From Candidatus Kaiserbacteria bacterium (lineage in GTDB: Bacteria; Patescibacteriota; Minisyncoccia; Phycocordibacterales; Phycocordibacteraceae), in the NCBI GenBank assembly GCA_026396675.1, contig JAPLWI010000008.1:42883-106882 (forward strand): a stretch of 64,000 bases of DNA. Direction: 5' to 3'. This document shows positions 4,396 through 58,571 of this stretch, one piece after another. Under the pieces are notes generated by a model, which ran no database searches, was not told the origin of the DNA, and was given only the letters and a program-made list of their open reading frames with translations. Both the position numbers and the translations under genes were made by a program. The first letter of the stretch is position 1; the number at the start of each line of letters is the position of its first letter.

Positions 4396-6360
4396 ATGAA
4401 TTCAGCACCAGCCCCGGCACCGAGTCCGGCAAATCCGAGTCCTTCGCGCGATGAACATTCTTTCTCTCGTCCTTCTTCTCCGCGGCGTTTTGACAAAAGA
4501 GGAAGTCGTCCACTTGGACAACGCCCGCCCGTAAGTTCGCCTCGCCGAGGATTTAGCGAGGCGAGTAGGAAGGGGCCACGCCCAGGAGGCGCAACGCGTC
4601 GAATTCAACGAATTCTTCGTCGCCCATCGGCGAACCCGACACATCGGATTAAGAGCGCCGATTACTTCCCTTCTCAGCCGAGCGCGACAACGGTTCGCAT
4701 TATTCCGCTCGGCGGAGTAGAAGAAGTGGGGCGCAACATGATTGCCGTTGAGGTCGGTGCGACCGGCGACATTCTCGTTTTCGATGCAGGTTTTCAATTC
4801 GTTTCCGAAGATGTGTCTCCGGGCGTTGATTATATTCTCCCAAACACAAAGTATCTTGAGAAGAATGCCGAGCGAGTGAAGGGGGTCATCATTACGCACG
4901 GACACCTCGATCACATCGGCGGTATTCCTTTCACATTGCCGCGTTTCGGGAACCCTCCTGTATACACTCAGAATCTCACTTCAATAATGATTCAGAAACG
5001 GCAAGAGGAATATCCAGATATCCCGAAGCCAGAATTGATAATCGTTGAAATCGGCCAAACTGTAACTATCGGTAAGACGCGCGTAAAATTTTTCCCAGTT
5101 ACGCATTCAATTCCCGACTCCATGGGCGTGTCAATTGAAACGCCGCAAGGCAACGTGGTCATCACCGGTGACTTGAAACTTGAACACGATGACGGCATTC
5201 CTTCAGAACGCGAGGTAAAGACCTGGGGCGATATCGGCAAAGACAATAATATTTTCTTTATCGCCGATTCGACGAACGCCGAAAAAGACGGGTTCTCTAT
5301 TCCCGAGAAACGCGTCATTCAAACGTTGGAAGATATTGTGAAGACGGTTTCCGGACGCCTTATTATCGGCACTTTCGCTTCGCAATTTGAGCGCATGATT
5401 CATATCATAGAGATAGCGGAAAAATTGCATAAAAAAGTCGTTACTGAAGGTCGCTCCATCAAAACCAACCTTGAAATCGCAGAAAAAGTTGGGCTTTTGA
5501 AGATTAATAAAGATACTCTCATTCCCGCACAAGATATCGGGGACTATCCGCCAGATAAAATCGTCATTCTTTCAACCGGCGCACAGGGAGAAGAATTCGC
5601 CGCCTTGATGCGTATCGCAACCAAACAGCATAAATACATCATGCTTTCTGAACGCGACACGATTGTACTTTCATCATCGGTTATTCCGGGAAATGAGCTC
5701 AATGTGCAGAAATTGAAGGATAATCTCTACCGTCATGGCGTTACGCTTATCAATTATCGTTCGTCGGATGTTCACTCGACTGGCCATGGCAACACAGGCG
5801 AACTCGTGTGGATTAATAAACAGGTTCATCCGAAATTCTTTATGCCCTCTTACGGCTACCATTCAATGCTTCGTTGCCACGCGAAGGCCGTCGAGCAATC
5901 GGGATTCCCTCGAGAAAACATCGTCATTCCTGACAATGGCTTCGTCATCGACATTGAAGATGGTGAACGGATGAATGTACACAAGCAGAAAGTACCCTCC
6001 ACACCGATGGTTGTTGACGGATTCAATATCGGTGATATACAGGAAGTCGTAATTCGTGATCGCCAGTCACTCGCGAAGGATGGTATGTTCGTCATCATCG
6101 CGAGCGTCAATCTTAAGACCGGCAAATTGCGTAAGTCGCCTGATATTATCAGCCGCGGCTTTATTTATCTGCGCGAATCGCAGAATCTTCTAAACGAAGC
6201 GCGCATTCTCATCAAAAAAACAGTTGAGGATTCAACACGCAATATGAATCCGATTGATTTGGATTATGTAAAAAATAATCTGACTGATGTAATGGCGGGC
6301 TACCTCTTCAATCGCACCAACAAAGCCCCGATGGTGATTCCTGTCCTGATTGGGATGTAA
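4396..6360 (+). CDS. rnj: ribonuclease J (metallo-beta-lactamase / beta-CASP) with a ~100-aa Arg/Pro/Ser-rich N-terminal extension
   Basis: VRIIPLGGVEEVGRNMIAVE...GVIITHGHLDHIGGIPF (HxHxDH motif), followed by beta-CASP and C-terminal RNase J domains. Confidence 0.85.
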   Translation: MNSAPAPAPSPANPSPSRDEHSFSRPSSPRRFDKRGSRPLGQRPPVSSPRRGFSEASRKGPRPGGATRRIQRILRRPSANPTHRIKSADYFPSQPSATTVRIIPLGGVEEVGRNMIAVEVGATGDILVFDAGFQFVSEDVSPGVDYILPNTKYLEKNAERVKGVIITHGHLDHIGGIPFTLPRFGNPPVYTQNLTSIMIQKRQEEYPDIPKPELIIVEIGQTVTIGKTRVKFFPVTHSIPDSMGVSIETPQGNVVITGDLKLEHDDGIPSEREVKTWGDIGKDNNIFFIADSTNAEKDGFSIPEKRVIQTLEDIVKTVSGRLIIGTFASQFERMIHIIEIAEKLHKKVVTEGRSIKTNLEIAEKVGLLKINKDTLIPAQDIGDYPPDKIVILSTGAQGEEFAALMRIATKQHKYIMLSERDTIVLSSSVIPGNELNVQKLKDNLYRHGVTLINYRSSDVHSTGHGNTGELVWINKQVHPKFFMPSYGYHSMLRCHAKAVEQSGFPRENIVIPDNGFVIDIEDGERMNVHKQKVPSTPMVVDGFNIGDIQEVVIRDRQSLAKDGMFVIIASVNLKTGKLRKSPDIISRGFIYLRESQNLLNEARILIKKTVEDSTRNMNPIDLDYVKNNLTDVMAGYLFNRTNKAPMVIPVLIGM

Positions 6361-10279: not shown

Positions 10280-11164
10280 TTAAAAACCACTGTCTTCAAT
10301 ATCGCGGAGTTGCTGATAGGGACGAATATTCTTGCACAAATCGCTTTGGGTTGTTGTGGCATCTCGTTTGCTCGTCGAGGCAACTACTGCGAGTGGCGGT
10401 GGAAGCCCATTTTTAGGACCTCCACGGAAATTCCAAGGAAACACAAAGCAAGCATGAAAGGATGAACTTGTTGCTGAGGCAGAAGTGCCTGTCTGCACAG
10501 GCAATCCTACAACACGCACGATACCGCCGCGAGCAATAGTAGTTAGATCTGGATTGCGAAGATCACTTCCGTCGATTTCCCACATATGCCCAGAAAAATC
10601 ACGGAGAGTGAAGGAAGCAAGGTCTGATGCAACATTTATAACTTCCCCTCCCAAAAGCCCCTTCTCCGGCGCGAGCCACCATGATTGTTGTTGAACGAGA
10701 ACAGGACGATAAAAAGGAGGGTGATCGCCGATTGCCTCATCAATTCTGCCGCCAAAACCAATCGCATACAGACCTGTACCGAGAGTGAGTGAAGTAAGTA
10801 CTGCCCCGAGAGCGATGATAGGAAGTGAATACCGATATCCGTGATTGGTTCGACGAATATTTATATATCCAATACAAATGAAAAGGGCGAGTGTTCCTAT
10901 CCAAACGAATGGTGCGGCGGCTAGAAAGAATGAGAAAAAGGTGGTGTGCGTCGCGGCTGAGAGACGCCAATCGACATTCGCGATTTCAAAGAATGTCGCT
11001 GAACAAGCTAGCGCGCCAAATGCCACAGCAAGCGCTCCTAATAGCCAGAAAAAATAATTTTTGATTACGAATTCCCAGCGCGGGCGTGGTACGAGATGTT
11101 CATTCTTGATGTAGTCGAACACTCGCTCTGCGATATGTGCTTTGTTGTGATTATTTGTGTTCAT
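10280..11164 (-). CDS. membrane protein, probable cognate anti-sigma factor (294 aa)
   Basis: Its start overlaps the stop of the ECF sigma gene by 4 nt. It has a short cytoplasmic N-terminus, three TM helices and a ~160-aa extracytoplasmic domain. No conserved anti-sigma motif was recognised. Confidence 0.4.
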   Translation of the reverse strand: MNTNNHNKAHIAERVFDYIKNEHLVPRPRWEFVIKNYFFWLLGALAVAFGALACSATFFEIANVDWRLSAATHTTFFSFFLAAAPFVWIGTLALFICIGYINIRRTNHGYRYSLPIIALGAVLTSLTLGTGLYAIGFGGRIDEAIGDHPPFYRPVLVQQQSWWLAPEKGLLGGEVINVASDLASFTLRDFSGHMWEIDGSDLRNPDLTTIARGGIVRVVGLPVQTGTSASATSSSFHACFVFPWNFRGGPKNGLPPPLAVVASTSKRDATTTQSDLCKNIRPYQQLRDIEDSGF

Positions 11165-15144: not shown

Positions 15145-15168
15145 AAAAACCGCCCTCGGGCGGTTTTT
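15145..15168. terminator. bidirectional rho-independent terminator AAAAA-CCGCC-CTCG-GGCGG-TTTTT
   Basis: Flanked by an A-run and a T-run. It lies between the convergent rplT gene (+) and the MBL-fold RNase gene (-). Confidence 0.8.
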
Positions 15169-16555
15169 AAATTCTATTTACAGAATTATTTTTGATCTCC
15201 CAGGTCTGCCCTATTTCGGGAACAATGGCGCGAGTACCGAGATAGTCGTGGATGCGTTGGGCGAGGAATCGCTCGGCAGATGGCTCGCCCATCGCGGTGA
15301 AAATTGTTTTTGTATATGGGAGCGACGCCTCAGCAAATTTCAATAATTCATCTCTATCAGCGTGGGCCGACCAACCCTCTAAAAGCTCTACTTTGGCCCT
15401 TATTTTCACATCATGCCCATTGAGACGTACACTCGGTGAACCTTCGGCTATACGCCTTCCAGGGCTCCCTGGGGCCTGATAACCGACTATAAAGAGCGTC
15501 GTGGAAGGGTCGGGGAGATACTTCTCCTCCCAGCGGCCGATGCGGCCGCCATGACTCATCCCAGCGCCGGCGATGATGATTTTCGTACTGGGGACAAGTT
15601 TATCTATTTCTTCTGACTGATCACGCGAAAGTGTCTTCTTCAAAAAGGGGAACTCGAAAATGCTCCCTTCCCTTTTCATCTCATCTTCGGTCTCCGGTTT
15701 AAAATACGTCGCGCCCCATTTTTCATACACCTGTGTGACATGAATCGCGAGTGGCGAGTCCAGAAAGACGGGAATCTTCGGCAGGTCACCCGCATCAAAA
15801 AAGTTCGAGAGTTCGTAGAGCATGAGCTGAGTGCGCTCTAATGAAAATGCTGGGATGAGAATGGTGCCACCTTTCGCAATTGCACGTTTAAGTGCCTCGG
15901 CCAAGACCTCGGCACGCCCCTGCTGTGGCGGATGAACTCTATCACCATAAGTGCTTTCCATCACAATGGCATCAGCGTCAGTAATTGGCTCCCAATCTGG
16001 CAAAAGCGGTGACGGCGAGTTGCTGATATCACCAGTGAGAGCAACTGCATTTCCTTCTTCGTCTTTGATTCGCACGCTTGCCGAGCCGAGAATGTGGCCT
16101 GTGTTGCGCAAATAAATTGAGAGTCCTGGCGCGGTCTCTTTTTCTGTGTGATATTCGAGCGTTTCGAAAAGAGAAAATGCAATTTCGACGTCTTCTTCGG
16201 TGTAGAGAGGTTCACGACCATGCCGCTTTGCTTCTTCGCTCAATATCCCTACCGAATCATGCAAGATAAGTTTGGAAAGATCAGCGGTCGGAGGCGTCAT
16301 GTAGATTTTCCCGCGGAAACCATCTCTTACTAGCTTCGGAATGCGGCCGCAGTGGTCAAGATGGGCATGTGTTAGAACGAGTGCATCAATTGTCGCAGCA
16401 TCATACGGAAACGCCTCGTGCATATGCGCTTCACTGAAGTCATTCCCCTGTTCAATGCCACAGTCGATAAGTATTTTACCTTTCCTCCCTTCGACTAAAA
16501 AATTTGAACCGGTTACTTTACCAGTACCACCATAAAAACTTAATCGCAATGACAT
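15167..16555 (-). CDS. metallo-beta-lactamase / beta-CASP family RNA-processing nuclease (CPSF-like), 462 aa
   Basis: LVLTHAHLDHCGRIP (HxHxDH) plus beta-CASP motifs and a C-terminal RNA-metabolising MBL domain. Confidence 0.75.
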   Translation of the reverse strand: MSLRLSFYGGTGKVTGSNFLVEGRKGKILIDCGIEQGNDFSEAHMHEAFPYDAATIDALVLTHAHLDHCGRIPKLVRDGFRGKIYMTPPTADLSKLILHDSVGILSEEAKRHGREPLYTEEDVEIAFSLFETLEYHTEKETAPGLSIYLRNTGHILGSASVRIKDEEGNAVALTGDISNSPSPLLPDWEPITDADAIVMESTYGDRVHPPQQGRAEVLAEALKRAIAKGGTILIPAFSLERTQLMLYELSNFFDAGDLPKIPVFLDSPLAIHVTQVYEKWGATYFKPETEDEMKREGSIFEFPFLKKTLSRDQSEEIDKLVPSTKIIIAGAGMSHGGRIGRWEEKYLPDPSTTLFIVGYQAPGSPGRRIAEGSPSVRLNGHDVKIRAKVELLEGWSAHADRDELLKFAEASLPYTKTIFTAMGEPSAERFLAQRIHDYLGTRAIVPEIGQTWEIKNNSVNRI

Positions 16556-24855: not shown

Positions 24856-25197
24856 TTATTTCGTAGGGCGAGACGAGGTGACTCCTTGCTTCAAGGTGTC
24901 ACCTCGGCCTGCAATCTTGAAATGCTTCATTTTCGAAATTGGGCGAGTTGCCACAATGGTTACTGTGTCACCAATCTGTGCGATATTGCCCTGGTCGTGC
25001 ACGAGATAATTTTTTGACCGCACGAAATACTTTTTATATTTTGCGTTCTTCACAAAGCGATTAACACGGACAACGGCAGTATCTTTCGCCGCCGTTCTAA
25101 CGACAACTCCAGTAAATGATTGTGGACGAGCCGAAGGCACTGAGCTTGCCTGCGGTGAGCTTGTCGAACTCGTCGAATGTGTAGTGTTTTGTTCCAT
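24856..25197 (-). CDS. rpsQ: 30S ribosomal protein S17 with a Ser/Thr-rich N-terminal extension (start taken at MEQNTT; the ORF track extends to 25353)
   Basis: …FTGVVVRTAAKDTAVVRVNRFVKNAKYKKYFVRSKNYLVHDQGNIAQIGDTVTIVATRPISKMKHF… matches S17. Confidence 0.85.
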   Translation of the reverse strand: MEQNTTHSTSSTSSPQASSVPSARPQSFTGVVVRTAAKDTAVVRVNRFVKNAKYKKYFVRSKNYLVHDQGNIAQIGDTVTIVATRPISKMKHFKIAGRGDTLKQGVTSSRPTK

Positions 25198-25201
25198 ACA
25201 A

Positions 25202-25420
25202 TTATGCGGAGCGGGTCGCAGATCCTGAGCTGAGCGAACGGGCGGACTGTTCAGTGAGTATGCGCGCAATTTCTGCGCGAAATTTCTTCGGGGAGTTGCT
25301 GTCCTTTGGACGTGCACCGGCCGCCGCAAATCGCTCGGTACGCAGGAGCGCACGCGTGTCAGCGAGAAGTTTAGAAAGCTCTTGTTCTGTCTTTGTCGTC
25401 ATTGATTCCCTTTTTGTCAT
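25202..25420 (-). CDS. rpmC: 50S ribosomal protein L29
   Basis: …EQELSKLLADTRALLRTERFAAAGARPKDSNSPKKFRAEIARILT… matches L29. Confidence 0.8.
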   Translation of the reverse strand: MTKRESMTTKTEQELSKLLADTRALLRTERFAAAGARPKDSNSPKKFRAEIARILTEQSARSLSSGSATRSA

Positions 25421-34099: not shown

Positions 34100-36247
34100 T
34101 TACTTCCTGCTCGCGATGATATCAGTGGCAATGTTATTGGGAACCGTGTCATAGTGATCGAATTCCATCGTCATCGAGCCGCGGCCTTCGGTCATTGAAC
34201 GAAGAGTGGTTGTGTAGCCGAACATTTCGGAGAGCGGGACTTTTGCCTTCACCACCTTATTTAAGCCGCGTTCTTCCATTCCCTCAATCTGGCCGCGCTT
34301 CCCAGAGAGATTGCCTGTGATGTCGCCCATGAATTGTTCCGGTACGATAACTTCAACGCGCATAATCGGTTCCAGAATAACCGCTTTCGCTTTGCTAGCC
34401 GCTTCTTGGAACGCCATTGACGCCGCAATCTTGAATGCGATTTCGGACGAGTCCACATCGTGATATGAACCGTCATAAAGGTCTACTGAAATATCAACCA
34501 TCGGGAAGCCAGCGAGGAATCCGCGCGACATTGCTTCGCGGAGACCCTTCTCCACTGCTGGAATATATTCCTGCGGAACGACACCGCCTTTGATGTTGTT
34601 AATAAATTCAAAATGATCTTCGCGTGTGATGTTCTTCGGCATCTTCGCGCCTTCCACGAGCGGCTCCATCTTCTTCATCTTTATCTTTACGTGGCCATAC
34701 TGACCGCGACCTCCTGTTTGTTTAATGTACTTCCCTTCAGCATCTGCAGAGCCGAGAATTGTTTCGCGGTATGCCACCTGTGGCTTACCCACATCAGCGA
34801 CGACATTGAATTCGCGCTTCATTCGTTCCACAAGAATTTCCAAATGCAATTCGCCCATACCAGAAATAATGGTCTCACCGGTCTCATCGTCGGTTTTGAT
34901 TCGGAATGTCGGATCTTCATCAGAAAGTTTGCGGAGTGCGATGCCCATTTTTTCCTGATCCGCTTTCGTTTTCGGTTCAATGCGAAGTGATACAACCGGC
35001 TCAGGGAATTTAATTTGTTCAAGTATGATTGGATTTGCTTCGTCGCAGAGAGTGTGCGATGTCTTCGTATCTTTAAGACCCACAGCGGCGGCTATTTCTC
35101 CAGCAAAGACCTTTTCAACCTCTTCGCGCTTATCGGCCTGAAGTCGCACGATGCGGCCGACGCGCTCTTTCGTTCCTGTCGTTGAATTATAGACATAAGA
35201 GCCGGCTGAAAGTGTACCGGAATATACACGGAAGAAAGTTAACGCACCGACGAATGGATCTGTTTGGAGTTTGAACGCAAGTGCACAGAACGGCTCGTCG
35301 TCCGACGCGTGGCGCTCAACCGGATCGCCTGTCTTTGGATTTGTGCCAGTCGCTGGCGGTAGTTCGAATGGTGATGGTAGATAATCAACAACAGCGTCAA
35401 GAACAAGTTGTACGCCTTTATTTTTCAGAGCGCTCCCACAGTAAACCGGAAAGACCTCATTTGCGACGACCGCCTTATGTAAAATCGCTTTTAATTCTTC
35501 AAGCGGTGGTTCTTTCCCTTCCAAATACGCGTTCATTGCAGAATCGTTTTGCTCAACAATGCGTTCAATGAGTTCGGCGCGATATTTTTTCGCATCTTCA
35601 AGAAGGTTCGCTGGAATTTCTACTTCAACCACTTCTTCGCCCATATTCCCAGTAAAATGATAGGCCTTCATCGTCAGTAAATCCACAGAGCCCTCGTGTG
35701 CCGTTTCTTCACCGATAGGAATCTGCATGCGAATGGCCTTCGGCGAGAGCCGATCAAGAATACTCGCATAAGAATTTTCAAAAGACGCGCCAGTGCGGTC
35801 AAGCTTATTGATGAAACAAATGCGCGGCACCTGAGCCTCGTCTGCATAGCGCCAGTTGGTCTCGGACTGCGGTTCAACGCCGGCGACACCATCAAAAACG
35901 ACGATGGCTCCATCAAGCACGCGCATTGAACGCTTCACTTCTGCAGTGAAATCAATATGCCCCGGAGTATCAATAATATTGAAACGAGATTTTTTTGAAG
36001 TGTCCTTTTTATCCTTCTCGCTGGTCTTAGTCCAGAAACAGGTAATGGCGGCAGATGTAATCGTGATGCCACGTTCGCGTTCCTGTTCCATCCAGTCGGT
36101 CGTTGTTTCTCCCTCGTGTACTTCGCCGATTTTATGCTGACTGCCCGTATAGAAAAGAATTCGTTCGCTTACAGTCGTCTTCCCCGCGTCAATGTGAGCG
36201 ATAATGCCGAAGTTGCGCACGCGTTCTAGTGGATAATCACGATTCAT
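34100..36247 (-). CDS. fusA: elongation factor G (start taken at [25 protein letters not shown]; the longest ORF extends to 36418)
   Basis: The G-domain motifs [17 protein letters not shown] and NKLD are present, followed by domains II-V. Confidence 0.95.
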
Positions 36248-36254
36248 ACAATTC

Positions 36255-36349
36255 TTCCAATCTACTACCAAGCGAACCGAATAACAAATATATGTCGCAT
36301 ATATTTGTTTGAGGTAAGCGCATGGAGGAAGCCGTTCATACGGCTTACC
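36255..36349 (-). promoter_or_regulatory. conserved ~95-bp module, copy B: hairpin overlapping the rpsG stop, a perfect 12-3-12 palindrome AACAAATATATG-CGA-CATATATTTGTT, and a TTGTTA-N17-TAGATT promoter 11 nt upstream of the fusA ATG
   Basis: Minus-strand read: GTGGTAAGCCGTATGAACGGCTTCCTCCATGCGCTTACCTCAAACAAATATATGCGACATATATTTGTTATTCGGTTCGCTTGGTAGTAGATTGG. It is about 80% identical to copy A at 50885-50978. Confidence 0.55.
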
Positions 36350-36809
36350 ACGCAAAATGTGCGAAGGCCTTGTTTGCTTCTGCCATGCGATGCATTTCGT
36401 CTTTCTTTTTAATCGCATCGCCTTCGTTTTTGGCGGCCAACACGAGTTCGGCGGCGAGTTTTTCAGCCATCGGCTTTCCCTTTTTTGAACGAGCGGCGTT
36501 TATGAGCCAACGAAATGAAAGTGCGAGACGACGCGTCTGCGGCACCTCACGCGGAACTTGATAATTCGCCCCACCGACACGACGCGAACGCACTTCCATC
36601 AATGGCGACACATTGCGCAACGCCGCTTCAAAGGTTTCTAGAGGATTCGCGCCGTCCTTCTCTATCACCGCGAGTGCGTCATAAACAATTGCGCGCGCTG
36701 TATCCTTTTTCCCATTCCACATCACCGCATTGATAAAACGTGTGAGCGTCTCCGAACCGTATTTCAGGTCCGGGCGCCAAGTTCTTTTATGTTTTAGAGG
36801 ACGACGCAT
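36345..36809 (-). CDS. rpsG: 30S ribosomal protein S7 (start taken at MRRPLKHK)
   Basis: …[67 protein letters not shown]… matches S7. Confidence 0.9.
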
Positions 36810-43879: not shown

Positions 43880-45837
43880 AGAATAACCGTCTCTTTTTCA
43901 TCTTCATCATAAAGCATAAGCGACGAATCAATATCAGCGAGAAAAGAAGATGGCTCTGTCAGAAAATCATTTCCATAAATTTTACGAACGCGCGCCAAGG
44001 TGAGAAAAAGTCGTTCTTTCGCGCGCGTCATCGCGACATAAAAGAGCCGCCGCTCTTCTTCTTCATCTCTATCTTTGTTTCCCATCCCACTGTGCGGGAA
44101 TAACCCCTCTTCCATACCGCTGATAAAAACCGTGTTGAATTCGAGACCCTTTGCCGCGTGCACAGTCATCAAGGTGACTCCTGCCCTCAAGGAGTCACCT
44201 CGCTGCGAGGTGTCACCTTGATGAAGATCCATCTCGTCCTGGTCGCTTGCGAGAGCGGTTTCAGCAAGAAATAAAGCAATGCTTTCTTTACCTTTAACTG
44301 CGTCATGCCGCGTAGCGACTGAGGCGAGCTCTTCAACATTTTCAAATCGTTCTCTATCCTCCTCGCTTCCTTCGTCAGAAAGCGCCAGGTGCATGCCGCT
44401 CTTTTCAATCACCATTTTTACAAATTCAGAAGGGGTGAGCGATTCGGCGGCGAGTGAAAGTTCTGTAATAACACGTTCAAACTTTTCAACTTTTTCGAGT
44501 TCGCCTGCGCGCAGTTGTGCGCGCTGCCCCGCCGCGAGTTTCCCGAGCGTTATGTGACCAATCCCGCGTGGCGGCGAAGTCACCGCGCGAATTTTATCAA
44601 CTTCGCGCGATGGATCTAGTGCGAGTCGTATCCACGCGAGCACATCTTTCACTTCTTTACGTGCGAAAAAATGCGTGCCGAGTAATCTGTATGGTACTCC
44701 TGCATTAAGAAGACCTTCTTCTAATGCCCGCGATTGGAAATTAGTTCGGAAAAGTATCGCAATCTCTTCGGGCTTAATGCCACTTTGCATTAATTCACGA
44801 ACTTTCGCAGCAATCCAGCGCGCTTCATCTTCGGCAGAACGCGTCATATGAATCACGATGGGTTCACCTGTAGGGCGTTCTGTTTTTGAAAATTTTTCTT
44901 TGCGATTTTTATTTTTCTCAATAACAGCGTTCGCCGCATTAACTAAATTTTTTGTTGAACGATAATTTTGTTCCAAAATAATTGTCTGTGCCTTTGGATA
45001 GGTCTTATCAAACTCCAGTAGATTTTCAATAGTCGCGCCGCGCCATGTATAAATTGTTTGATCTATATCGCCGACAACGAAAAGATTTTTGTGTTTTGCC
45101 GCTAGTATATTCGCGAGACGCCCTTGGAGCGCATTTGTGTCCTGATATTCGTCAATATGAATATAACGCCAGCGATTCTGCGCCAATTCGCGAACATCGG
45201 CGTGTGTTTCAAGCAACCGTACCGGAAGAGCGATAAGATCATCAAAATCAAACGCCTTTTCTTCTTTCAGAGTGTTTTCATATCTGCGCCATGCTTCTGC
45301 AGTAATGCGATTGCCGAAACCTGATCGCGCGTGCTTCTCATAAAATTCATCGACCGTTATTCCCTCCCCTTTCGCGCGTGAAATACGTCCGAGTATGGCT
45401 CGCGGAGAAAATTCTTTTGCTCCAACATCGAGCGCTTTCAATGCTTTCGCAATTGCCTTTTCCGAATCGTTGCGGTCGTACACACTGAAAAAACGCGGGA
45501 CTTTAATTACATTTCCATAATTTTCTAAAAGCTCACGACCAAGGCCATGAAAGGTTGCGATAAAAGGCAATGACGACTTTTCTTCTGTTCCAAGCATATG
45601 CTGGACTCGTTGTCGCATCTCGCGAGCGGCTTTATTGGTGAAAGTCACCGCGAGAATCTGGTCGGCCAGTACTCCCTCGCGGATAAGGTGATAAATGCGC
45701 GTCGTGAGCACACGCGTTTTCCCGCTACCGGCACCAGCGAGCACGGAAATTGGGCCATCGGTCGCCAACACCGCGCGTTTTTGTTCCTCATTTAATCCTT
45801 CAAGGTATTTCACTATCGGACTATACCGCAAAATCAC
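43876..45837 (-). CDS. pcrA: ATP-dependent DNA helicase, UvrD/PcrA family
   Basis: LNEEQKRAVLATDGPISVLAGAGSGKTRVLTTRIYHLI… and helicase motifs I-VI are present. Confidence 0.9.
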   Translation of the reverse strand: MILRYSPIVKYLEGLNEEQKRAVLATDGPISVLAGAGSGKTRVLTTRIYHLIREGVLADQILAVTFTNKAAREMRQRVQHMLGTEEKSSLPFIATFHGLGRELLENYGNVIKVPRFFSVYDRNDSEKAIAKALKALDVGAKEFSPRAILGRISRAKGEGITVDEFYEKHARSGFGNRITAEAWRRYENTLKEEKAFDFDDLIALPVRLLETHADVRELAQNRWRYIHIDEYQDTNALQGRLANILAAKHKNLFVVGDIDQTIYTWRGATIENLLEFDKTYPKAQTIILEQNYRSTKNLVNAANAVIEKNKNRKEKFSKTERPTGEPIVIHMTRSAEDEARWIAAKVRELMQSGIKPEEIAILFRTNFQSRALEEGLLNAGVPYRLLGTHFFARKEVKDVLAWIRLALDPSREVDKIRAVTSPPRGIGHITLGKLAAGQRAQLRAGELEKVEKFERVITELSLAAESLTPSEFVKMVIEKSGMHLALSDEGSEEDRERFENVEELASVATRHDAVKGKESIALFLAETALASDQDEMDLHQGDTSQRGDSLRAGVTLMTVHAAKGLEFNTVFISGMEEGLFPHSGMGNKDRDEEEERRLFYVAMTRAKERLFLTLARVRKIYGNDFLTEPSSFLADIDSSLMLYDEDEKETVIL

Positions 45838-50315: not shown

Positions 50316-50831
50316 TTATCCTCGTGAAGTGATTGTGAATTTCTTCGGATCATCACACATGTCTGTAAATGCGTGCGCCGCTTCTTTGAGTTTGCTCGAT
50401 GAGGATTTTCCGAAAGAGATTACCTCAACCTGACATCCCTCATTCATATCCAAATACTGGATAAGAGGAACGAAATCACCGTCGCCAGTGGCGAGCACAA
50501 CCGTGTCGAGTTTTGGAGCGAGCTTGACTGCATCAATTGCTAAGCCAACATCCCAGTCGGCCTTCTTGGCGCCATCAGCGAATACCTGAAGGTCTTTCAT
50601 CTTTGTTTCTATGCCCATTTTAGTGAGCGCTTCAAAAAAACTCTTTTCTTCGCCGCTTTCTGTTGAAATCACGTAGGCGATTGCGCGCACCAGAATACGG
50701 CCGCCAACCGCTTCTTCAAGGATTTTATTGAAATTCACGCGCGCCTTGTAGAGATGTTTAGCACTATGATAAAGATTTTGCGTGTCAATGAATACGCCCA
50801 CACGCTGGGCTGGATGTTTGATAACTGCCAT
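50316..50831 (-). CDS. NYN-domain (LabA-like, PIN-like) protein, 171 aa
   Basis: VGVFIDTQNLYHSAKHL… and the acidic cluster …VVLATGDGDFVPL… are typical of NYN/LabA nucleases. Confidence 0.65.
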   Translation of the reverse strand: MAVIKHPAQRVGVFIDTQNLYHSAKHLYKARVNFNKILEEAVGGRILVRAIAYVISTESGEEKSFFEALTKMGIETKMKDLQVFADGAKKADWDVGLAIDAVKLAPKLDTVVLATGDGDFVPLIQYLDMNEGCQVEVISFGKSSSSKLKEAAHAFTDMCDDPKKFTITSRG

Positions 50832-50884: not shown

Positions 50885-50978
50885 TCATACTACTACCAAG
50901 TGAGCCGAATAACAAAAACATTCTTATGTATTTGTTTGAGGCAAGCGCAGGTAGAAAGCTTGGCTTTGCAAGCTTACC
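50885..50978 (-). promoter_or_regulatory. conserved ~95-bp module, copy A: hairpin directly after the rpsO stop, palindrome AACAAATACAT-AAGA-ATGTTTTTGTT, and a TTGTTA-N17-TAGTAT promoter upstream of the NYN gene
   Basis: Minus-strand read: GTGGTAAGCTTGCAAAGCCAAGCTTTCTACCTGCGCTTGCCTCAAACAAATACATAAGAATGTTTTTGTTATTCGGCTCACTTGGTAGTAGTATGAG. The hairpins covary with copy B (GCCG/CGGC versus CTTG/CAAG; TATATG/CATATA versus TACAT/ATGT). Confidence 0.55.
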
Positions 50979-50991
50979 ACTTATAGAAAAA

Positions 50992-54450: not shown

Positions 54451-54735
54451 TTATTCGCCGAACAGTTCTGGGTGCGTACCAATTTCAGAGATAGTAACAA
54501 TCCCCGCTTCATCATTGCGTTTGTATATCAATAACAAGTTAAATCCCAAGTGACACTCTCTAAAACTCGCGAATTCCCCATGAAGTTGGTGGTCTTTAAA
54601 CCTCTCTGGAAGCGGATTCCCTTGCTCAAGACAATTAAGGACTGAATTGAAAACAGAAGAATTGAATGTGCCAGAATACCTTAATTTCTTTAAACGCCTT
54701 CGCGCCGAGATAGAAAGCGATACAGAATAGATCAT
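54451..54735 (-). CDS. yafQ: type II toxin, RelE/YafQ family mRNA interferase
   Basis: …KDHQLHGEFASFRECHLGFNLLLIYKRNDEAGIVTISEIGTHPELF follows the YafQ pattern (H.L.G…rEcHi…LLiY…vtl.ri.gtHselF). It overlaps the upstream dinJ-like gene by 4 nt. Confidence 0.75.
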   Translation of the reverse strand: MIYSVSLSISARRRLKKLRYSGTFNSSVFNSVLNCLEQGNPLPERFKDHQLHGEFASFRECHLGFNLLLIYKRNDEAGIVTISEIGTHPELFGE

Positions 54736-55016
54736 TGGAAGAATTCTTTCATTATCTCCTTCGCGGTATATCGTTTACCATGCTTCTCCGCGTATTCCGT
54801 TTCGCGAATAACGCGTGCTTCAAACTCGGGCGTGAAGCCATTTATTGTGCGTGGCGTAAACGGCATCGCCTTGTCTTGGACAACGCGAGAAAGGTACATA
54901 TTGATACCGGTCGAGAGATCGAATCCCATCTGCTTGAATACGCGCTGTGCGGCGAGTTTCGTCGCTTTGTCGGTCCGCACGTTCACCACTGCTTTTGCGA
55001 TTGTTTTGGTAGCCAT
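54732..55016 (-). CDS. dinJ: type II antitoxin, RelB/DinJ family, with a C-terminal extension (start taken at MATKTIAK)
   Basis: MATKTIAKAVVNVRTDKATKLAAQRVFKQMGFDLSTGINMYLSRVVQDKAMPF matches DinJ-family antitoxins. An extra ~40 aa follows. Confidence 0.7.
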   Translation of the reverse strand: MATKTIAKAVVNVRTDKATKLAAQRVFKQMGFDLSTGINMYLSRVVQDKAMPFTPRTINGFTPEFEARVIRETEYAEKHGKRYTAKEIMKEFFQ

Positions 55017-55024
55017 ACGGATAG

Positions 55025-55090
55025 TATACACATTGTATATACAAATGCAATCATACCTGTGCATAAGAAATAAAATGATTAAGGTATACA
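55025..55090. promoter_or_regulatory. operator-like TATACA / TGTATA half-site cluster in the dinJ-yafQ / xth divergent promoter region
   Basis: TATACA-CAT-TGTATA lies at 55025-55039, with a further TATACA at 55085-55090. The arrangement is typical of an autoregulated TA operator. Confidence 0.45.
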
Positions 55091-55099
55091 ATAGTTTCT

Positions 55100-56234: not shown

Positions 56235-57698
56235 CTAGCTCACTCCATGCTTTTTCATTATATGCTTTATTTCCTCATTTTCTTCAGCTTCCTTACGCTC
56301 TTCCCCTGCCTTTCCGAGCCTTTGTAACTCATTTTCAGGCATTTCAAGTAGTTCGTCAGTTCGCTTATCGAGATATTCCTCTGTATTTAAATCGGCGTTA
56401 TCAAGAACTTCTTCGAGAAGGGCATTTAATAAATAGCCGATCTTCGGCCCCGGTTTCTCGTGGAACTTTTCCATTATGCGATTTCCATCCGTTTTGAGCC
56501 TAGAAACAGAAATTGGATCATGGAGGGCTTGTTCTACCAATGCCTTATACTTACGAAACCGAAATGGTTGCTCTTTTGGTCGACCCATCCCGATACGGTC
56601 GCACATTCTAAGATTAAGCAGATCCCAGATATTCTCCTCGCCGACGTTGGTTATCATACGACGCACTGCTGATAGAGTAATTTGATCGGGATCCGAAAAA
56701 AACATGTGCCAGCGGACCAATTTTACGACCTTATCAATTGTTTCGCGTGGGAAGCGTAGATTTTCAAGGATTTTCTTTGTTTCGCGTGAACCAACAACTT
56801 CATGGCCATGGAAGCTCCAATCATCTTTTTCATCTGAATGACGGCGCGTTTCTGTCTTTGATATATCATGGAATAGGGCAGCGAGACGAATTTCCAAATT
56901 AAAATTTTTATCCGCCGCATGCTGTAAGGAACGAACAAGATGTTCAAAAACATCGTAACTATGTGCTTGATTCTGTCCTATACCAAAAGAATCGGCTAGT
57001 TTCGGAATTATGAATTCAAGGATACCAAGCCGTTGCGCCAGAATAAGAGCATTCATCGGCTGACTTGATTCTAATATTCTTACAAATTCGTCTCGAATCC
57101 TTTCACATGAAACATGGCCTAAATGCTTGCTATTTTCGCTTATCGCCATTGCTGTATCACCATCTATTCCAAAATTTAACTCGGCAACAAAGCGAACGGC
57201 GCGTAAGAGACGCAAAGCATCCTCTTCAAAACGTTCACTCGGATTCCCGACTGCGCGAACTATTTTGTCCTTTATGTCCTTTTGACCTTCATAGGGATCT
57301 ATAATTTGTCCTTTTGATTCATCGAGGGCGATGGCGTTGATCGTGAAGTCCCTCCGAGCGAGATCTTCAAGAAGGGAAGTGCCGAATTCAACTTTATCCG
57401 GCCTACGTTTATCGGAATATTTGGATTCAATACGGTAAGGAGTGACTTCAACAATAGCCAGTCGTTCGTCTTCAGAATTCGTCTTTACTCCAACCGTCCC
57501 GTAGTCATTTTCATAAAAGGAGTCGGGGAATACTGCCTGGATTTGTTCTGGCGTTGCGTTGGTAGTAATATCCCAGTCCTTTGGTTCCTTTCCGACAAGG
57601 AGATCGCGAACGCACCCGCCAACAAGATATGCCTCGAATCCGGCATTTCGCAGTTTCGCGGAGACGGTCGAAATTTCTTTTGGGATGCGATACGACAT
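56235..57698 (-). CDS. cca: CCA-adding enzyme / tRNA nucleotidyltransferase with HD domain
   Basis: GGCVRDLLVGKEPKDWDITT… is the polymerase-beta nucleotidyltransferase head. The C-terminal HD domain reads …RLAALFHDISK…. Confidence 0.85.
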   Translation of the reverse strand: MSYRIPKEISTVSAKLRNAGFEAYLVGGCVRDLLVGKEPKDWDITTNATPEQIQAVFPDSFYENDYGTVGVKTNSEDERLAIVEVTPYRIESKYSDKRRPDKVEFGTSLLEDLARRDFTINAIALDESKGQIIDPYEGQKDIKDKIVRAVGNPSERFEEDALRLLRAVRFVAELNFGIDGDTAMAISENSKHLGHVSCERIRDEFVRILESSQPMNALILAQRLGILEFIIPKLADSFGIGQNQAHSYDVFEHLVRSLQHAADKNFNLEIRLAALFHDISKTETRRHSDEKDDWSFHGHEVVGSRETKKILENLRFPRETIDKVVKLVRWHMFFSDPDQITLSAVRRMITNVGEENIWDLLNLRMCDRIGMGRPKEQPFRFRKYKALVEQALHDPISVSRLKTDGNRIMEKFHEKPGPKIGYLLNALLEEVLDNADLNTEEYLDKRTDELLEMPENELQRLGKAGEERKEAEENEEIKHIMKKHGVS

Positions 57699-58513: not shown

Positions 58514-58571
58514 GAATGGTAATGTGAAGCGAAGCGAAAACGGGCTGTGCCCGCCGTAGCTTTAGCGAAGG

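Follow-up and report, generated by a model that had tools for sequence, protein, structure and literature searches.

The question raised by this locus is whether a conserved module of about 95 nt, which stands twice in a stretch of 64,000 nt from a Candidatus Kaiserbacteria bacterium (hereafter the window, by which we mean the whole stretch analysed), is a regulatory signal of the genes behind it or a sequence that came to lie there by insertion. A preliminary description reported this module of ~95 nt on the minus strand ahead of fusA (copy B) and ahead of a gene for an NYN-domain protein (copy A), and we find it at both sites. Judged by its sequence, it is a real, bounded and structured unit. 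The reading that we hold with moderate confidence is that it is a small (~83–95 nt), low-copy, non-coding and non-autonomous insertion element of a narrow Kaiserbacteria-like group of Patescibacteria, that its hairpins are conserved and its target adjoins GTGGTA, and that it carries or rebuilds a promoter-like signal. This reading is carried by the comparison with related genomes, in which the same gene junctions occur without the module and the module occurs at other, non-orthologous sites.

The genes on the minus strand of the window run rpsL, rpsG (S7) and fusA (EF-G), with rpsO (S15) and a 171-aa NYN/LabA gene (assigned with Pfam) farther on; the S7 and NYN proteins are ~90% identical to proteins named Candidatus Kaiserbacteria, Paceibacterota or Patescibacteria. 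Copy B (36250..36351; nhmmer E 9e-32) fills the 97-nt gap between the rpsG stop codon TAA (36347-36345) and the fusA ATG (36247-36245). Copy A (50887..50980; nhmmer E 2e-30) lies between the rpsO stop codon TAG (50994-50992) and the NYN ATG at 50831; these coordinates, and those of all parts of the two copies below, are on the minus strand. Copy A was first taken to start at the rpsO stop codon, whereas its opening block GTGGTAAGC lies 11 nt past that codon, at 50980, and the copy ends ~55 nt ahead of the ATG. The common blocks listed in the preliminary description, GTGGTAAGC, TGCGCTT(A/G)CCTCAAACAAATA, TTTGTTATTCGG and CTTGGTAGTAG, are all present in both copies, which align at 80% mean column identity when flanks are counted and at 83% over 71 nt by blastn (E ~3e-14). 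The 26-nt 3' block occurs twice in the 64-kb window at up to three mismatches, against 0.00 expected. A larger segmental duplication, which the preliminary description had named among the findings that would tell against it, is ruled out, as the flanks are unrelated and similarity ends at the module edges. Both copies are unchanged in short contigs of the same strain (99.8–100% identity). The data sets ERR15302166-223 and SRR20698651 contain this strain, and relatives occur in SRR22388071 and in Ga0265296, Ga0209541/2 and Ga0209211 of the JGI 3300 series. No third copy was found in the window by profile searches, repeat finding or a pattern scan, and nhmmer --max with four- and five-copy profiles returned no further or degenerate copies from the window and all 36 loci used for comparison (L numbers below).

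The orthologous sites of relatives are empty. Between rpsG and fusA there are 5 nt in L019, L020 and L029 and 10 nt in L021, with no element. The junction has been broken open repeatedly in the clade: in the window, in L030, where an unrelated 59-nt spacer (10466-10524) holds a canonical terminator hairpin (GCGCGGGGCGCG) and a T run, and in L022, which has two extra open reading frames (ORFs) between the two genes. The site of copy A is likewise empty in two sets of relatives. L014 is syntenic with the window over 47.1–59.4 kb at 75–78% nucleotide identity, and its rpsO-NYN spacer reads AAGAAATAGTTTCGCAAAAAGTGGTAAGCTAAGATAGTAG... without the module; L001-L008 are also syntenic for rpsO-NYN, with a spacer that consists of a G+C hairpin and TGGTAAGAT, again without it. 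The closest relative of the NYN gene (L032) has only 18 nt of upstream sequence, too short for an empty-site comparison. The converse case is seen between yraN (UPF0102) and tRNA-Pro, where the spacer of the window (58514..58571, plus strand) is empty and that of the syntenic L014 is filled. A XerC/D-like gene that adjoins the element is syntenic in relatives lacking it. The proposal that the module is a conserved operator or leader defining a regulon of fusA and the NYN gene finds no support in these comparisons, because the orthologous spacers of relatives are without it and its copies elsewhere sit at unrelated loci.

Five independent copies are known, namely A, B, L014, L015 (whose sequence is shared with L010 and L017) and L031. 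The search pattern consisted of 19 bases from the 3' block. It gave nine loci in JGI metagenomes, four of them true and representing two distinct elements, and no match in 185,579 representative (GTDB) genomes, with one chance match found later in an Acidobacteriota coding region. Viral contigs gave no pattern match and later four chance matches, and no match was found in plasmids and phages with blastn. The L031 copy came from a protein-database search with the antisense-frame peptide of the module, a frame used purely as a search device. Copies across loci and genomes are 82–87% identical, compared with 69–81% for the flanking genes.

The settings of the three outside copies differ. In L014, the element lies between yraN and tRNA-Pro and ends 11–14 nt before the tRNA. 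In L015, L010 and L017, one unit of a tandem duplication of ~540 nt holds the element, ahead of an ABC-transporter gene and reversed relative to it, and the other unit is empty. The duplication in L015 (7909-7974 and 8451-8516; 8066-8103 and 8530-8567) covers the 5' end of the ABC-transporter gene and its upstream hairpin; a pseudo-start of 66 nt and a small ORF of 70 aa remain between the units. In L031 (813-690 and 661-589, minus strand), ~40 nt comprising 8 nt of upstream sequence and the first ~33 nt of tRNA-Asn are duplicated, and the upstream copy is interrupted by the element between nucleotides 20 and 21, in the D-loop of the duplicated tRNA-Asn 5' half; the intact tRNA-Asn follows ~50 nt downstream. 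The left flank there is the first 20 nt of tRNA-Asn (TCCGCGGTAGCTCAGTGGTA), and past ...CTTGGTAGTA the sequence GAGTGGCTCGCC continues with tRNA positions 21–32.

The L031 copy gives the cleanest boundaries, with an element AGCCGTAGGAACGGC...GGCTCGCTTGGTAGTA inserted between GTGGTA and GAG. The left flanks of the five copies are GCGTGGTA (B), AAGTGGTA (A), CAGTGGTA (L031), AGTG-TA (L014) and GGTTATA (L015); GTGGTA is thus exact in the three best-resolved copies and degenerate in the other two. By the L031 rule, GTGGTAAGC is the GTGGTA flank joined to the first bases of the element, AGC; the window has three exact GTGGTAAGC sites, of which two are occupied. On the model of insertion 3' of GTGGTA, which draws on the empty rpsG-fusA junctions (L019, L020, L021 and L029) and the L031 copy, the element proper of B would be the 83 nt AGCCGTATGAAC...CGCTTGGTAGTA (36263..36345) with its flank at 36351-36346. 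The element proper of A would be the 84 nt AGCTTGCAAAG...CTCACTTGGTAGTA (50891..50974) with its flank at 50980-50975, and its empty sites are those of the syntenic L014 (AAAAAGTGGTAAGCTAAGATAGTAG...) and L001-L008. The module as first delimited would therefore include flank that exists in element-free genomes, namely GTGGTA and perhaps, in B, all of the first 18 nt.

Removing the element on this model gives plausible empty sites. For B, GCGTGGTA^GATTGGAAGAATTGTATG has rpsG ending in TGG TAG, followed by a spacer with a Shine-Dalgarno-like GGAAG, and GTGGTA is joined to GATTGGAAG. For A, AAGTGGTA^GTATGAGTAGGG joins GTGGTA to GTATGAG and forms an extended −10, TGGTAGTAT, comparable with TGGTAAGATGATAG in L001; the GTGGTA flank of A belongs to this predicted, pre-existing extended −10 of the NYN promoter. 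For L015, GGTTATA^ACTATAACCCG can be compared with its own empty unit, GGTAATACTAATATAACCCG. Both extended −10 promoters (TGGTAnnAT) and tRNA D-loops contain the motif GTGGTA, which the TGG TAA/TAG end of rpsG has by chance. The 3' end of the element, TTGGTAGTA, resembles its own target. The right end is variable, and B and L014 share a weakly similar extra 12–14 nt. A derivation of the right end from the 3' end of rpsG was rejected, the local alignments being only marginal (p ~0.03).

Three of the five copies lie in local target duplications, of 8 nt (B), ~40 nt (L031) and ~540 nt (L015). These may be mechanistic, or may reflect survival where an intact essential copy remains. In B, an 8-nt direct repeat flanks an 84-nt insert, which fits a model of 8-nt duplication too. 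One repeat copy, GTATGAAC (36334..36341), equals the native spacer and fusA start codon region of relatives (L019, ...TGGTAACCCGTATGAACCGCGAT), and the other, GTATGAAT (36242..36249), contains the present fusA start codon.

All five copies share one fold, in which a terminal hairpin precedes a long, imperfect one. The terminal hairpin has AAGC/GCTT as its closing stem and a variable, covarying extension. In B (36329..36346) it consists of AAGCCG (36346-36341), the loop TATGAA and CGGCTT (36334-36329), the first base being flank, and in A (50956..50975) of AAGCTTG, the loop CAAAGC and CAAGCTT, so that the covariation reported for this hairpin is borne out. The long hairpin is built, in order, of GCG/CGC, RCC/GGY, an internal loop, AACAAA...TTTGTT and a tip that varies and is still complementary. 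In B (36276..36315) its base ACC (36315-36313)/GGT (36278-36276) and an internal loop lead to a perfect 12-3-12 palindrome (36309-36283), and in A (50906..50942) a GCC/GGC base leads to an 11-4-11 palindrome (50936-50911) with one T.T mismatch, in agreement with the perfect and the one-mismatch palindromes of the preliminary description. The RCC/GGY pair covaries among copies, being ACC/GGT in two and GCC/GGC in two. In a count over four copies, pairing holds in 96.4% of cells, and both sides have changed in 7 of the 21 pairs, values reached by none of 500 shuffles, and slid controls pair at only 34–46%. In L031, the otherwise invariant stem is compensated, by eye, to AACAAG/CTTGTT. The outer stem GGTAAGC/GCTTRCC that had also been proposed fares worse: it competes with hairpin 1 and, judged by eye and counted by no tool, is not kept in the copies of other genomes.

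The promoter-like motif is present as described, with TTGTTA, a 17-nt spacer and TAGATT in B (36259..36287; TTGTTA at 36287-36282, TAGATT at 36264-36259) or TAGTAT in A (50887..50915; 50915-50910 and 50892-50887). The conservation of fold and spacing extends beyond this genome, and all five copies keep TTGTTA (TTGTTT in L031), 17 nt and TA+NNN, the −10 reading TAGATT, TAGTAT, TAAAGT, TAGAGT or TAACTA. The element contributes just the 'TA' of this hexamer, the remainder being flank; in B the last four bases lie outside the element. The motif scores 8/12 to consensus, under the scanner's 9-of-12 threshold, at which 26 sites were found against 25 expected from shuffles. In L014, the spacing-conserved motif places the end of the −10 11 nt before the 5' end of tRNA-Pro, compared with 10–12 nt for the tRNA-Arg and tRNA-Gly promoters of these genomes. 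Genuine promoters of the window are canonical, as in tuf (TTGCAT-17-TATAGT), and the extended −10 TGGTAnnAT is common. Plausibly, the element converts or restores a promoter for the downstream gene. The label 'terminator' finds no support: a G+C-rich stem with a T run is lacking in both hairpins, the first having CCTCC after it and the second being rich in A+T, and a terminator scan gave nothing at A or B. A coding-potential check showed no reading frame conserved across copies. In B, the insertion makes an upstream ORF of 24 codons (36265..36339, frame +0 of B), which runs from the old fusA-type ATG through the element to TAG at 36267-36265, 17 nt before the fusA ATG, and could preserve the rpsG-fusA translational coupling. 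Its product ends FAW*, like the S7 C-terminus.

These data allow two readings in which the module serves the host, both of which we consider improbable. In the first, it is a regulatory cassette, a promoter whose −35 lies in a palindromic operator and which was copied ahead of translation-related genes (fusA, NYN after rpsO, tRNA-Pro and tRNA-Asn) to place them under one regulator as a small regulon. The invariant hexamers and 17-nt spacing agree with it, as does the better conservation of the blocks than of adjacent coding DNA, and four of five copies are co-oriented with a translation-linked downstream gene at ~10–70 nt. This orientation bias is, however, not significant and would be expected from an oriented target motif in promoters; the L015 copy faces away from any gene, conservation is higher in the spacer than in the proposed −10, of which half is flank, and relatives express the same genes without the element. 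The inner palindrome, moreover, differs between the two copies of one genome by compensation, which preserves the hairpin and not a protein-recognition sequence; this is easier to reconcile with a DNA or RNA hairpin than with a site bound by a single dimeric protein.

The second reading takes the module as a cis-acting structured RNA, cotranscribed with rpsG-fusA, rpsO-NYN and yraN-tRNA-Pro, that would act as a processing or stability hairpin for RNase III, RNase J or NYN, as an attenuator or as a leader that sequesters the Shine-Dalgarno sequence, and we give it about the same small chance. Covariation supports base pairing, and the A, B and L014 copies lie within likely sense transcripts. 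Near the 5' side of B and L014, CUUCCUCC can base-pair with GGAAG/GGAG just ahead of the gene that follows, and only these two copies show a weak outer complementarity, of CTTCCTCC with GGAAGAA/GGAGAAG. The predicted fold of B is more stable than shuffles (z = −3.5), but that of A is not (z = −0.44). The element also precedes tRNAs, where Shine-Dalgarno sequestration is meaningless, lies once antisense, and is missing from the orthologous mRNAs of relatives. It has no Rfam match: Rfam 15 at gathering score found only four tRNAs in the whole window, and the best sub-threshold match to the module had 20 bits against a cutoff of 50. Covariation of a DNA palindrome is equally expected for single-stranded or cruciform DNA, and the covariation data would fit a hairpin acting as DNA or as RNA equally.

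Under the reading that we prefer, that of an inserted element, the module would have entered differing intergenic or expendable sites in different genomes, in the best-resolved cases directly 3' of GTGGTA. Its end ...CTTGGTAGTA would re-create the 'TA' that completes a TAnnnT −10 with the flank, with TTGTTA set 17 nt upstream, and at rpsG its first bases would restore the TAA stop codon. Because stop codon or −10 would be restored on insertion, the element would be tolerated ahead of essential genes, and a sigma-70-type promoter would probably be supplied or rebuilt for the gene downstream. As to mechanism, our favoured guess is that an HUH/Y1-type enzyme inserts the element as a single strand guided by its hairpins, in the manner of IS200/IS605-derived or REP-like elements (REP, repetitive extragenic palindromic); microhomology-mediated copying would be the alternative. 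A bolder version, offered tentatively and with more doubt than conviction, is that of a self-propagating, promoter-rebuilding element that homes to the GTGGTA core common to tRNA D-loops and extended −10 promoters, enters the site as a single strand folded into hairpins, restores the stop codon or −10 and adds a −35 at 17 nt. It would be a mobile promoter cassette of the streamlined genomes of the candidate phyla radiation (CPR), possibly moved by a domesticated HUH/Y1 enzyme.

Several points weigh against an insertion element. Its copy number is very low (one pattern match in the 693-kb L014 contig, two in the 64-kb window and none among the 185,579 representative genomes), and the independent copies number only five, among which there is no consistent target-site duplication and there are no clear terminal inverted repeats. 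Pfam and tblastn found no transposase gene among the ~50 ORFs of the window, and the Y1-like gene of relatives was not found there and has different hairpins. The strong conservation of the blocks could reflect a host function, and the promoter-like hexamers are weak. Finally, at its left end B has 17 nt (TGGTAAGCCGTATGAAC) that match the native rpsG-fusA junction of L019 (TGGTAACCCGTATGAAC) at 16 positions, which, together with the 8-nt repeat, means that one insertion rule does not fit all copies cleanly. The start of the L031 element, AGCCGTAGGA, equals the native spacer of L021. This suggests that the left hairpin was captured from the rpsG-fusA junction, where the family may have been born; an origin at the junction is at odds with the genome of L014 and L019, in which the junction is empty and the element lies elsewhere.

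Least probable of the alternatives is a passive spread, in which the module was born once at that junction and copied elsewhere and between genomes by microhomology-mediated recombination at GTGGTA/TTGGTAG, with no dedicated machinery: the native-like left ends of B and L031, the similar motifs GTGGTA and TTGGTA that bound the element, the location of three of five copies in local tandem duplications and the low copy number speak for it, but it needs several independent microhomology events sharing one left boundary, it meets the same empty junction in the genome of L014 and L019, and it leaves the compensatory maintenance of the hairpins unexplained.

An insertion element at these sites would matter because the small genomes of Patescibacteria (CPR) are thought to carry few mobile repeats, and a non-exhaustive check of the literature on miniature inverted-repeat transposable elements (MITEs) and small intergenic repeats in Patescibacteria found no such description. 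The element splits rpsG-fusA, among the most conserved bacterial gene junctions and translationally coupled in relatives, and it is borne without evident harm within a promoter and a tRNA fragment as well. If promoter rebuilding is true, it would be a natural example of operon rewiring in minimal genomes, and a compact, portable promoter or insulator part for organisms not yet culturable alone. A caution also follows: two copies of a conserved 'regulatory motif' in one genome can stem from insertion and need not signal a regulon.

The surroundings of the two copies have features of their own. The NYN/LabA protein encoded after rpsO (50316-50831, minus strand) is ~85–94% identical across many Kaiserbacteria/Paceibacteria and may be a housekeeping ribonuclease; rpsO-NYN synteny is conserved in the window and L001-L008, in a position analogous to that of rpsO-pnp elsewhere in bacteria. 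Genes for RNA processing are dense in the window, with RNase J and a second beta-CASP metallo-beta-lactamase ribonuclease with RMMBL (4396-6360, plus strand; 15167-16555, minus strand), the NYN gene and a CCA-adding/poly(A) polymerase (56235-57698). Type II toxin-antitoxin genes (YafQ/RelB, ParE, HicA) are scattered among the genes for ribosomal proteins and translation factors, both in the window (54451-55091, minus strand) and in L019 (664-927, 12914-13123 and 15741-16001). Another palindromic repeat family, AGGTGACnCCTTG..CAAGGnGTCACCT, lies in frame within coding genes of the window (24876-24906 and 44172-44220) and is reminiscent of the Rickettsia palindromic elements. Its first copy lies at the 3' end of a 165-aa ORF (24856-25353), whose product ends ...GRGDTLKQGVTSSRPTK*, and its second lies within a UvrD-like helicase (...QGDTSQRGDSLRAGVT...).

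How the element relates to known systems can be approached by exclusion. A tRNA or tmRNA is ruled out by ARAGORN, and an autoregulatory S7/S15 leader by its position downstream of rpsG/rpsO and its absence from relatives. An integron attC or Xer dif site is excluded from the sequence, as CTCAAAC/GTTATTC neither fit core sites nor pair with each other; two direct dif copies 14.6 kb apart would, in addition, delete essential genes. Two features of a classical (DDE) MITE, a fixed duplication and a high copy number, are also wanting, and its terminal inverted repeats are not clearly seen. As to a fixed target-site duplication, only B has the GTATGAAC/GTATGAAT repeat, with no 8-nt repeat at the equivalent positions of A, L014, L015 and L031; the palindrome is internal, and the termini AGCY.../...GGTAGTA are not inverted repeats, being weakly complementary in B and L014 only. 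Many copies are ruled out by two in 64 kb, one in the 693-kb contig and none in the GTDB representatives. The E. coli rpsO-pnp leader is similarly a hairpin-rich spacer after rpsO and ahead of a ribonuclease-type gene, but it is a fixed orthologous region, whereas the element is absent from close relatives and repeated at unrelated loci. ERIC, RUP and BOX of enterobacteria and streptococci are also imperfect palindromes of ~100 nt, patchy and located in intergenic transcribed regions; they are, however, high-copy families of other phyla, share no sequence with the element and are not reported to target GTGGTA.

The closest parallels are found among hairpin-defined non-autonomous elements. REPs occur in tens to hundreds of copies per genome and are mobilised by Y1 (HUH) transposases, the RAYTs (REP-associated tyrosine transposases). 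Like the IS200/IS605-derived palindrome-associated transposable elements (PATEs) and like REPs and REPINs, the element is short, non-coding and extragenic; it is defined by covarying hairpin stems and not by terminal inverted repeats, and it has a conserved short left flank and a similar right end (TGGTA^ and GTAGTA^) with no regular target duplication. Y1_Tnp-like genes exist in genomes related to the window. The differences are the lack of sequence similarity and a copy number of 1–2 per genome, so that, although GTGG precedes hairpin 1, as GT(A/G)G precedes the short imperfect palindrome of a REP, the tens to hundreds of copies of a REP family are not found. No RAYT/Y1 gene flanked by the same repeats was found, and tblastn and Pfam detected no Y1 gene in the window. 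Relatives have a Y1_Tnp-like (RAYT/IS200-like) gene of 221 aa ahead of rpsL (L019 8323-9062, L020 8282-9021 and L029 1212-1515). In L019 and L020 it is flanked by a hairpin, CACTTGGGTGTGAAACACCCAAGTG, that also occurs twice in frame inside it (peptide LGCETPKL), and in L029 the scan gave the two internal copies only. A link between this gene and the element was rejected, because the hairpins differ (CACTTGGGTGTGAAACACCCAAGTG) and its 'TGGTAGTAT' is simply its promoter. An IS200/IS605-type target motif is usually 4–5 nt, shorter than the GTGGTA found at B, A and L031 and, in degenerate form, at L014 and L015; the empty sites are sensible on such a model, but B fits an 8-nt duplication too. Elements of this type have subterminal hairpins at both ends that TnpA recognises as single-stranded DNA; the hairpins found here covary and would be candidates for such a role.

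For the effect on neighbouring genes, the nearest comparison is with the Correia elements (CREE/NEMIS) of Neisseria, whose terminal inverted repeats measure 26 bp and which occur in hundreds of copies with a TA target duplication. They are likewise palindromic intergenic insertions of ~100 nt that bring −35/−10 boxes to their neighbours; they vary in presence or absence among strains and form long hairpins in transcripts. The 26-bp repeats, the TA duplication and the hundreds of copies are not seen here, and there is no sequence similarity. By analogy, then, the element would work most like the hairpin-defined, target-specific non-autonomous elements represented by PATEs and REP/REPINs, while its effect on neighbours would be most like that of the promoter-bearing Correia elements.

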